Made by a program: the position numbers and the translations under genes | The notes under the pieces: model-generated | The model's database searches: none | What the model saw: only the letters and a program-made list of their open reading frames with translations | What the model was told of the DNA's origin: nothing | Source: Escherichia phage JY01 | DNA length: 64,000 bases | Sequence record: OR995200.1 | Direction: 5' to 3' (one strand) | In this document: positions 34,391-35,317 of the stretch, piece after piece | Position numbering within the stretch: the first letter of the stretch is position 1 | How the letters are laid out: each line of letters starts with the position of its first letter

Positions 34391-34418
34391 TTTATTCTCC
34401 TTTGTTTGTGTAAGATAA

Positions 34419-34448
34419 TACTATCACAAAGGAACCATACTGTAAACA
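34419..34448 (-). promoter_or_regulatory. early promoter candidate
   Basis: minus strand: GTTTAC - 18 nt - TAGTAT, upstream of the 110-aa ORF. Confidence 0.4.
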
Positions 34449-34477
34449 ACTTTATGCAATCTTTGGAAAATAAAAAA

Positions 34478-34495
34478 GGACTCCCGAAGGAGTCC
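34478..34495 (-). terminator. rho-independent terminator after the 58-aa basic ORF
   Basis: minus strand GGACTCC-TTCG-GGAGTCC followed by TTTTTTATTTTCC. Confidence 0.65.
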
Positions 34496-34500
34496 TCAAC

Positions 34501-34677
34501 TTATGCTTTCTGCTTACCAAAACGAGAAGCATCATCTCGAAGAACCGCACGTGCTCGGCGCATGATCTTCTCAACAGTTTGATTGATACGAGAGTTCGAC
34601 CCACGCTTGTAGCCAGCGCGTTTAGAATCACCAACTTTCTTTTCAACTGCTTTCTTTGCTTTAGCTTGTTTTGCCAT
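34501..34677 (-). CDS. small highly basic protein (58 aa)
   Basis: MAKQAKAKKAVEKK...; start at the internal ATG with an AAGAG SD; followed by a strong terminator. Confidence 0.5.
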   Translation of the reverse strand: MAKQAKAKKAVEKKVGDSKRAGYKRGSNSRINQTVEKIMRRARAVLRDDASRFGKQKA

Positions 34678-34921
34678 TATAAATTCTCTTTTAAATGAAA
34701 ATGCAGGACTTATTGGCATTGCCTGCGCAAGCCCTCAAGGGGAACGTAGGTTTTTGGATATTTAACGACCAGGATAACCATAAACCCGTCATCATTCACA
34801 TTCAAGAGGTACACCGTAAAACTGCCGGGGTCTTAAAACTATAATGATTCGCAAATCATTAATCAGACAGTTCGACGGCTCCTCGATTTAGCTCACACTA
34901 AGGCAGTGAATCTCCAATAAA

Positions 34922-35170
34922 TTACTTCAATGTTACCACAAAGTGACGAACTGCTTTTCGCGCAGCAGAAGCCAAAGGCTTAGCATATTTAAGTTCATCT
35001 TTTTCCTGAAGCTCAGCAGCTAATGCAGTTTGAGTAGGATTCAGATGTTTGAAATAACGCAGGATTTCAAGAGCTTCGGCTTCAACATCAATAGATGCGC
35101 CATAGTTTTCGTGACCATTATTCCATGCGTTTCGTTGCAGTTCAAGAGCGTGTTGTAATTGTTTAATCAT
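34922..35170 (-). CDS. rIII: rIII lysis-inhibition accessory protein
   Basis: 82 aa, position between gene 31 and the 30.x block as in T4. Confidence 0.8.
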   Translation of the reverse strand: MIKQLQHALELQRNAWNNGHENYGASIDVEAEALEILRYFKHLNPTQTALAAELQEKDELKYAKPLASAARKAVRHFVVTLK

Positions 35171-35309: not shown

Positions 35310-35317
35310 TATTTATA
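35310..35317 (-). promoter_or_regulatory. late promoter (TATAAATA on minus) downstream of gene 31, upstream of rIII
   Basis: plus-strand TATTTATA immediately after the gene 31 stop. Confidence 0.5.

Follow-up and report, generated by a model that had tools for sequence, protein, structure and literature searches.

Gene 30.9 and its neighbours

Gene 30.9 is a short reading frame of the T-even phages, and it is analysed here, together with the non-coding spacer that precedes it, in 64,000 nucleotides of Escherichia phage JY01 (sequence record OR995200.1), a stretch that is called the window throughout. The window is a segment of a Tequatrovirus (T4-like) genome, the 901 bases around the open reading frame (ORF) being 99.8% identical to many T-even phages of E. 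coli, Shigella and Yersinia, and its minus strand carries the genes in the order cd, 31.2, 31.1, 31, rIII, 30.9, 30.8 and 30.7. The coding sequence of 30.9 extends over 34677..34501 of the minus strand, from the ATG at 34677-34675 to the TAA at 34503-34501, and specifies 58 amino acids (aa) plus the stop. An earlier sequence-only reading of the same DNA had placed a 58-aa ORF at 34501-34677; the translation is exactly as quoted there, on the minus strand, which that reading had left unstated.

Upstream of 30.9 lies rIII (34922..35170, minus strand), which encodes a lysis-inhibition accessory protein, and the two genes are separated by a spacer of 244 nt (34678..34921, minus strand) that consists of an array of structured RNA modules. 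The 30.9 ORF has a G+C content of 44.6%, compared with 36.2% for the window, and its product, gp30.9, can be divided into a Lys/Ala-rich tail predicted to be disordered (residues 1–17), an invariant SKRAGYKRxSNxRI motif (residues 18–31) and a predicted basic amphipathic helix (residues 33–53). With 11 Lys, 8 Arg, 3 Asp and 2 Glu, a net charge of +14 and a pI of 11.36, the 6.5-kDa protein is as strongly basic and rich in lysine and arginine as had been claimed.

Gene 30.9 as a conserved protein-coding gene

The T4 reference genome contains the same coding sequence as gene 30.9 (NP_049823 / UniProt P17310, "conserved hypothetical protein"), between rIII and 30.8. The translation of the T4 locus (L001) is identical to that of the window, and length, neighbours and terminator agree as well, leaving no difference of substance. 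Furthermore, gp30.9 matches PHROG 1427 with an E-value of 2.3e-31 over its full length (residues 1–58), a cluster of 100% identical 58-aa proteins was recovered by database search, and its place, flanked on the same strand by rIII (or gene 31) and by 30.8, is that of the family. Gene 30.9 itself is already known, and we assign a probability of about 0.95 to the ORF being the ortholog of T4 30.9 and truly protein-coding. A match to T4 30.9 had been anticipated by the sequence-only reading as a possible source of a competing role; the function of PHROG 1427 is unassigned in the database and no role is annotated for T4 30.9.

The 30.9 frame was recovered in 1006 phage records by tblastn; about 1000 phage records and nine Tevenvirinae genera share frame, start and length (53–60 aa), and the SKRAGYKRxSNxRI motif, too, persists throughout the nine genera. 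This conservation across the T-even phages, a check that the sequence-only reading had proposed, removes the objection that the frame might be lost among relatives. The order 31–rIII–spacer–30.9–terminator–30.8 is likewise retained in Jiaodavirus, Dhakavirus, Gelderlandvirus, Karamvirus, Winklervirus, Mosigvirus and Gaprivervirus. Within the protein, the MAKQ start is conserved, all length changes are in-frame (multiples of three), and 14 residues are invariant in the first alignment, with the core SKRAGYKRxSNxRI...RARAVLR...FGKP. Pairwise dN/dS (the ratio of nonsynonymous to synonymous substitution rates) ranges from 0.08 to 0.69 across the nine genera, and the variable alignment columns are distributed 22/19/40 over codon positions 1/2/3.

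These data bear directly on the alternative that the ORF is non-functional as a protein and that the conserved entity is an RNA, either a 3' untranslated region (UTR) or a small RNA (sRNA), in which the reading frame is incidental. Such a reading could draw on the fact that gp30.9 has never been detected by mass spectrometry and on a sub-threshold Rfam match to the sRNA-like family Atu_C8 at 34462-34545, which mainly reflects the terminator and scores 31.4 bits (gathering score 50). It is close to refuted by the purifying selection that acts on the amino acids with variation concentrated at third positions, by the conserved start codon and the exclusively in-frame insertions and deletions, and by homologs that share 35–45% protein identity and have unrelated DNA.

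In many related GenBank genomes the 58-aa ORF is labeled "1,4-alpha-glucan (glycogen) branching enzyme, GH-13-type", or is lengthened to 72, 97 or 102 aa. The 72-aa ORF, which begins at an upstream ATG at 34719, and the 97–102-aa database versions were rejected because the extension is not conserved; both the branching-enzyme label and the longer versions are annotation artefacts. Gene 30.9 is one of about 130 T4 genes without an assigned function, and what is added here is firm evidence of selection, a defined conserved motif and a guess at nucleic-acid binding.

Transcription and translation signals

The strong terminator that had been noted after the ORF is confirmed. On the minus strand, at 34497-34476, a 9-bp stem is capped by a UUCG tetraloop, GAGGACUCC-UUCG-GGAGUCCUU, and is followed by UUUUUAUUUU, the whole element with its U-run covering 34466..34497. 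A terminator follows 30.9 in 13/13 loci compared, with compensatory changes in the stem (GGACUCC / GGGACUC / GGGAGAC), and the conserved combination of a G+C-rich hairpin and a U-run is that of a Rho-independent terminator. Beyond it, an early-type promoter-like site, TTTACA-17-TAGTAT (34418..34446, minus strand), precedes 30.8 (34390-34058), and a corresponding GTTTAC...TAtAaT is also present in relatives.

Within the spacer (34921-34678), neither a terminator nor a promoter of the sigma-70-like, late (TATAAATA) or MotA-box kind was found, so that 30.9 is most simply read as the distal cistron of rIII transcripts. The late-promoter sequence TATAAATA is found at 35317, by rIII, and PMC9409239 reports that rIII is served by early, middle and late promoters. 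We infer from this arrangement that 30.9 is transcribed by read-through from the rIII promoters. Driukas & Nivinskas 2003 (Biologija), as cited in PMC9409239, is the sole dedicated study that we traced, and deals with the expression of rIII and 30.9 in vivo; the literature searched contains no discussion of 30.9 function or of RNA elements in the rIII–30.9 spacer.

The ribosome-binding site (RBS) of 30.9, as read from the sequence, is a weak Shine-Dalgarno-like GAGAA (34684..34688, minus strand) located 6 nt upstream of the ATG, with UUUUC at 34700-34696 as a potential pairing partner. Outside Tequatrovirus, the last ~30 nt before the 30.9 ATG, read by eye, show in most genera an RBS of the form GGAAGA that pairs with an upstream UCUCC in a small hairpin; such a hairpin was read in L006, L009, L010, L016, L034 and L058. 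In L058 it takes the form CCUC...GAGG, an apparent compensatory change, and the T4 type has the weak UUUUC...GAGAA pairing only (34700-34684 in the window). Judged by the sequences, the RBS hairpin upstream of 30.9 may mask translation.

The rIII–30.9 spacer as a mosaic of RNA modules

The spacer had been described as GC-rich, which holds in direction and not in degree: its G+C content of 40.6% is a mild enrichment over the 36.2% of the window. The fold of the whole spacer has a z-score of −1.99. Spacer lengths across phages are 114, 120, 153, 194, 204, 244 (window and T4), 262, 263, 288, 297, 369 and 398 nt, and the differences come from the presence, absence and re-ordering of discrete blocks. 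Along the minus strand of the window, these are module A (34921-34884), module B (34885-34798), module E (34790-34746), a CCCC-UUGA-GGG hairpin, a GCAGG...CCUGC hairpin and the GAGAA RBS.

Module B (34798..34885, minus strand), as read from its fold and from comparison, is a branched stem, GAGGAGCCGUCG...CGGUGUACCUC, enclosing the hairpin AAUGAUU-UGCG-AAUCAUU, and relatives have short versions of it that lack the inner hairpins. The two small hairpins were read from the sequences. The first, CCCC-UUGA-GGG(CUUG) (34732..34742, minus strand), is found in other genera directly after the rIII stop, and the second, GCAGG-(14 nt)-CCUGC (34703..34726, minus strand), lies just 5' of the RBS, a site at which other genera have unrelated hairpins (GAGAGGU..ACCUCUC; GGGAGC..GCUCCC). 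Some relatives contain a further module, C (50 nt) or D (140 nt), and E precedes D in Kpn6N and follows it in EnC07 and G29. Because they are gained, lost and re-ordered between phages, the spacer modules behave as independent, cassette-like units, and the long leader ascribed to the ORF is, as far as sequence comparison can tell, a mosaic of shuffling RNA modules and not a dedicated regulatory 5' UTR. With such a leader, and with neither promoter nor terminator inside the spacer, the description of the ORF as a self-contained unit has to be abandoned.

Over the spacer of the window and of six relatives, no Rfam family was matched at E up to 1, the only matches being sub-threshold ones to the terminator. 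Module D (CGGCAAGUGCAUGCUACCCCGAGG...GCAACAGAUAAGAG) is common to one Tequatrovirus, one Jiaodavirus and one Karamvirus (G29, Kpn6N and EnC07), and is located at ~825-965 in L017, ~1205-1345 in L006 and ~1215-1345 in L009; it has no Rfam match, and a search against plasmids gave chance matches only.

The arrangement recalls the promoter-early stem-loop (PeSL) cassettes of T4-type phages, reportedly described by Arbiol et al. in 2010. Here, too, a small early gene 3' of 30.9 is bounded by a terminator hairpin with an early promoter directly behind it, and small units shuffle between relatives; the units that shuffle in the rIII–30.9 spacer, however, are not ORF cassettes but promoterless modules of non-coding RNA.

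Module E, a conserved H-type pseudoknot

Module E (34746..34790, minus strand) is assigned as an H-type pseudoknot on the basis of covariation and of a covariance-model match. Stem 1 is formed by GAC(G)GG / CCU(G)GUC, the loop GGUU pairs with a downstream AACC, and an A-rich linker, CGUUAAAUAUCCAAAA, is conserved. Upstream of 30.9 the module is present in 50/50 of those Tevenvirinae loci whose upstream sequence is long enough, and 40 distinct variants of it occur.

Covariation was assessed on a MAFFT alignment of 35 distinct variants, with crossing helices proposed by the analyst and 500 column shuffles as reference. The helices have 80.2% of their cells paired, compared with 67.7 ± 1.3% in the shuffles, and the covariation score is 0.333 against 0.142 for shuffled columns, with 0/500 shuffles reaching the observed value; sliding the 3' partners by 1–3 columns lowers it to 0.143 or less. 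Three pairs vary on both sides without a single unpaired cell, namely 15–37 (UA 20, AU 14, GC 1), 16–36 (CG 22, GC 9, UA 4) and 26–56 (GC 25, AU 6, GU 4). Two crossing helices are thus kept by compensatory substitutions, as expected of an H-type pseudoknot. The loop-to-tail pairing varies in sequence among the variants (GUUGGUU:AACCAAC, CAAGGUU:AACCUUG, UUGUGAG:CUCACAA and GGUAGUU:AACUACU), and the second helix is short in the T4 type (GGUU:AACC). Substitutions spare the linker CGUUAAAUAUCCAAAA and the loops more than the stems, a pattern typical of RNAs that have a specific tertiary fold, ligand or partner.

A covariance model of E (R1) matches the window at 34738-34801 with 68 bits, which is the sole match below E = 1 in the 64 kb, the next best scoring 13 bits. 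The same model gave no match in the loci of distant 30.9 homologs or in the toxIN plasmid locus. An assignment of E to the preQ1-I or another pseudoknot riboswitch class was dropped because no Rfam match was obtained at E up to 1 in the window and six relatives. As a mimic of a known bacterial antitoxin, E has no plasmid or bacterial counterpart, in tests of low sensitivity: blastn of two E variants against 72,556 plasmids returned nothing or chance matches, and an exact scan for the E pattern in 185,579 genomes, also insensitive, returned 41 single, scattered matches, where ~17 were expected by chance (an estimate), none of them in tandem and none in enterics.

An ORF of 34 aa (34795-34691, minus strand; MMTGLWLSW...) that is annotated in some records overlaps module E and was rejected as a gene, its frame being lost after 2–23 codons or absent in other genera. 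Its start motif, GUAUGAUG, is kept in many phages while its frame is not, and on sequence grounds the motif more probably belongs to the RNA element than to a coding sequence.

The leader of the T4 gene 32 mRNA also contains an H-type pseudoknot, which serves autogenous translational control. The likeness to module E is that of two H-type pseudoknots, each in the 5' untranslated region of a T-even mRNA, and gp32 binds nucleic acid. Module E differs in that it is unrelated in sequence, that it is found at a variable distance from the start of 30.9, from ~45 to ~290 nt, and that the order of the modules is shuffled. Overall, the surroundings of 30.9 matter more than the ORF, since they contain a pseudoknot that is present in all 50 informative Tevenvirinae loci and has no Rfam family.

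Module A, a probable and degenerate relative of the ToxI family

The block of phage Kpn6N that matches module A hits 66 small enterobacterial plasmids, at 3–10 places per record among the matches listed. In the E. coli plasmid pNMEC-O75B, a 5.6-copy array of a 36-nt unit, AGGTGATTTGCTACCTTTAAGTGCAGCTAGAAATTC, is located immediately upstream of an annotated toxin of the ToxN/AbiQ family. Identity to this plasmid toxI unit is 32/36 for the unit of phage VR20, 30/36 for that of Kpn6N and 20/37 for module A of the window, GGAGAUUCACUGCCUUAGUGUGAGCUAAAU (34886..34915, minus strand). Near-perfect single ToxI copies are thus present in the rIII–30.9 spacer of Gaprivervirus and Jiaodavirus phages, and T4-type phages have a decayed copy; ToxI-like units are located at ~700-735 in L014 and ~1165-1205 in L006.

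Taken alone, the match of module A to toxI is not significant. As many as 4.75% of shuffles score as high, and a covariance model of ToxI-like units from which the T4 type was excluded (R2) gives module A 11.5 bits (E 3.6, rank 6 in the window). The comparison with VR20, however, is significant: 22/36 positions are identical, the local score of 23 exceeds the maximum of 20 in 2000 shuffles (0/2000), and both units occupy the same position between the rIII stop and module B. The ToxI link of module A is therefore transitive, through the syntenic VR20 unit. Both crossing ToxI helices are kept in module A, with 94% of cells paired and at most 67% in slid controls, in nine sequences from which the helices were also chosen. 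In the same nine sequences, 3/6 pairs are changed on both sides, with CAC/GUG where toxI has UGC/GCA. These comparisons argue for module A as a member, degenerate here, of the ToxI family of pseudoknots, the type III antitoxins.

A type III toxin–antitoxin (TA) locus comprises a tandem array (1.9–5.6 repeats), a terminator and a ToxN/AbiQ toxin gene, whereas module A is a single unit without an adjacent toxin gene, and is for this reason only a mimic or remnant. The E pseudoknot and the ToxI-family units of the spacer are absent from Rfam 15 and unmentioned in the literature searched, and appear to be undescribed.

Outside the T4-like phages, a strict ToxI-like pattern retrieved single units from nine viral contigs. 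Contigs with ToxI-like units include L103 (1864-1935), L104 (341 kb, the size of a jumbo phage), L105, L107, L111, L112, L114 and L115; in none of the non-T4-like contigs does a 30.9 homolog lie nearby, and one of them contains two adjacent ToxI-like units directly behind a promoter-like TTGACA...TATAAT. The occurrence of near-perfect ToxI copies in T-even relatives and in unrelated viral contigs suggests that RNA mimicry of type III antitoxins, documented in the literature searched only for phage PhiTE, is widespread.

Predicted structure and possible mode of action of gp30.9

In the AlphaFold2 model, which was based on a 49-sequence alignment, residues 1–32 of gp30.9 have no regular structure and residues 33–53 form a single helix. 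The block means of pLDDT (predicted local distance difference test) are 79–92 over residues 31–58, and the overall mean is 71. Sequence searches gave no relatives outside the family: gp30.9 matches no Pfam family at E up to 10, Pfam searches with 49 family members returned scattered chance matches (best E 0.0045, Arc_C), and phmmer found no match among PDB sequences. Foldseek found no PDB match to the model either, a search of which little is expected because the model consists of one helix and disorder. The only PDB match of the family profile is a single 26-residue helix (RINQLFERIEAQLRQVLRE) of the nucleoid-occlusion factor SlmA, which aligns gp30.9 residues 30–55 with SlmA residues 122–147 at E 0.008–0.2 and is taken as a probable chance match. 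A word-indexed search of 5.8 billion proteins yielded 68 clusters of the 30.9 family, and an exhaustive HMMER scan of 1.84 billion representatives yielded only 18, all small proteins of phage-like contigs apart from one spurious repeat protein; gp30.9 therefore has no cellular relative.

The sequence-only reading had likened gp30.9 to ribosome- or nucleic-acid-associated small proteins. Composition and predicted shape do fit the second half of that description, and on this basis we consider nucleic-acid binding to be the mode of action of gp30.9 with a probability of about 0.5. The protein would fold on, and bind, nucleic acid, RNA more probably than DNA, with the basic tail and the helix making the contacts and the invariant tyrosine stacking on a base.

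The first half of the description fares worse. A ribosome-associated gp30.9 would attach to the rRNA of host ribosomes and, early in infection, shift translation in favour of phage mRNAs, and the size, charge and tail-plus-helix shape of the protein do resemble those of small ribosomal proteins, 30.9 is expressed early, and the product of the neighbouring gene, RIII, binds ribosomal protein S1 (PMC9409239). However, no ribosomal-protein Pfam model (at E up to 10) or chain of a solved ribosome was matched in the Pfam, PDB sequence and profile, and Foldseek searches, despite the many ribosome structures in the PDB, and knock-down of 30.9 has no fitness cost. Since no ribosomal-protein or other known family is matched, ribosome association is pure conjecture, and we regard it as quite improbable.

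The AKxAKAKKA-type repeats and the extreme positive charge of gp30.9, together with early expression, could also point to a DNA-binding protein of the histone-H1 kind, which would coat or compact host or phage DNA, for instance in nucleoid remodelling or in protection of injected DNA. The Lys/Ala tail that carries this resemblance is, however, the least conserved part of the protein, the conserved core being the Arg/Tyr/Asn-rich motif and the helix; moreover, Pfam searches with gp30.9 and its family gave no homology to HU, H-NS, H1 or Ndd-type proteins, and the knock-down is without phenotype. An H1-like function is unlikely on this evidence, and binding of nucleic acid, RNA more probably than DNA, is retained as the preferred mode of action.

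A possible role in host take-over or counter-defence

In the course of events that we propose, 30.9 would be transcribed by read-through from the rIII promoters and translated from the weak GAGAA site, its transcript would end at the conserved UUCG-tetraloop terminator, after which a new early promoter would start 30.8, and gp30.9, active early in infection, would be an accessory factor in host take-over or counter-defence that the phage can dispense with. A role of this kind is tentative, with a probability of about 0.3. A precedent exists in TifA (gp61.4), a small early T-even protein that relies on a basic alpha-helix at its C terminus for RNA binding and for neutralising ToxN (PMC10853763), and the neighbouring gene 30.3/adfN is an anti-DarTG factor according to the literature.

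In its favour, the T4 30.9 transcript is classed as early in time-resolved omics data (PMC9697503 Table S2). Several observations weigh against this proposal. No homology of gp30.9 to nucleic-acid-binding domains, ribosomal proteins or solved structures was found with Pfam, PDB and Foldseek searches, and there is no sequence similarity to TifA (T4 61.4; BLASTP E 15). The protein was undetected by proteomics in the same omics data (PMC9697503 Table S2); trypsin leaves one gp30.9 peptide of at least 7 residues, so non-detection is expected and uninformative. Knock-down of 30.9 by CRISPRi-ART was scored "Not Fit" (score 0.04, p 0.26), unlike that of gene 31, two genes upstream (PMC11879866 supplement), and this lack of a phenotype points to dispensability. 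Finally, distant 30.9 homologs have short spacers (29–141 nt) without the E pseudoknot, from which it follows that gp30.9 does not depend on the RNA modules.

The last point also bears on the suggestion that the RNA modules have gp30.9, encoded on the same transcript, as their protein partner, which would bind the pseudoknot and the ToxI-like RNAs either in auto-regulation of translation, as gp32 does through its leader pseudoknot, or, in the manner of TifA, to stabilise or present decoys against type III abortive-infection toxins. The suggestion gains from the occurrence of E upstream of 30.9 in all 50 informative Tevenvirinae loci, from the ToxI-like units on the same transcript and from TifA as an RNA-dependent small basic inhibitor of ToxN, and a coupling of gp30.9 with the spacer RNAs is an attractive analogy in the context of RNA binding by TifA and of 30.3/adfN. 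On the other hand, the distance from E to the start codon varies between ~45 and ~290 nt and the module order changes between phages, distant homologs lack E altogether, gp30.9 is not similar to TifA, and T4 needs TifA to overcome ToxIN, according to PMC10853763 and PMC9391042, from which we conclude that the 30.9 locus of T4 itself would not be sufficient. The variable distance and order, the E-less distant homologs and the lack of similarity to TifA are the reasons why this coupling is kept as a doubtful alternative to the accessory factor proposed above.

TifA and gp30.9 are alike in being small proteins of T-even phages with a C-terminal basic helix, required for activity in TifA (PMC10853763) and predicted in gp30.9, and the gp30.9 gene adjoins a ToxI-like RNA. 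They differ in that the N-terminal part of TifA is folded and its helix has a conserved Pro-Thr cap, where gp30.9 has a disordered tail and the SKRAGYKR motif.

The spacer RNAs themselves would act as decoys or ligands, and their modules suggest a role in RNA counter-defence. A known parallel is offered by Pectobacterium phage PhiTE, whose pseudo-ToxI copies toxI repeats in non-coding form and is expressed in infection (Blower et al. 2012, PMC3475682). Relatives of the window phage similarly have single units that are 30–32/36 identical to plasmid toxI; in contrast, the unit of the window is single and degenerate (20/37; E 3.6), and PhiTE needs expansion of the pseudo-ToxI region to escape. 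In the literature searched, the term pseudo-ToxI is used only for PhiTE, with no mention of the T-even rIII–30.9 spacer, and the literature searched on T4 and ToxIN does not mention a ToxI-like element in this spacer. T4 overcomes E. coli ToxIN only when TifA is amplified, and relatives with intact ToxI-like units provide a natural comparison.

At its most far-reaching, the evidence could be taken to mean that the whole rIII–30.9 interval is an RNA-based counter-defence island, an early transcript that combines pseudoknot decoys with a small basic RNA-binding protein. The decoys would be the ToxI-family unit and E, the latter mimicking some RNA antitoxin or other host RNA ligand, and gp30.9 and the RNAs would neutralise type III TA systems or similar abortive-infection nucleases. 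We hold this joint picture to be improbable as a whole; if true, module shuffling and decay would record an arms race with the toxin repertoires of the hosts.

Distant homologs of gp30.9

Distant T4-like homologs, which are ~35–45% identical to gp30.9, remain within the interval between gene 31 and the DNA-ligase gene. The most distant 30.9-like proteins are found in unfamiliar contexts (L004 204-3779; L003 87-5207). One of them adjoins two proteins with prepilin-type N-terminal methylation motifs, and another comes after a gene of >1600 aa without a Pfam or PHROG match.

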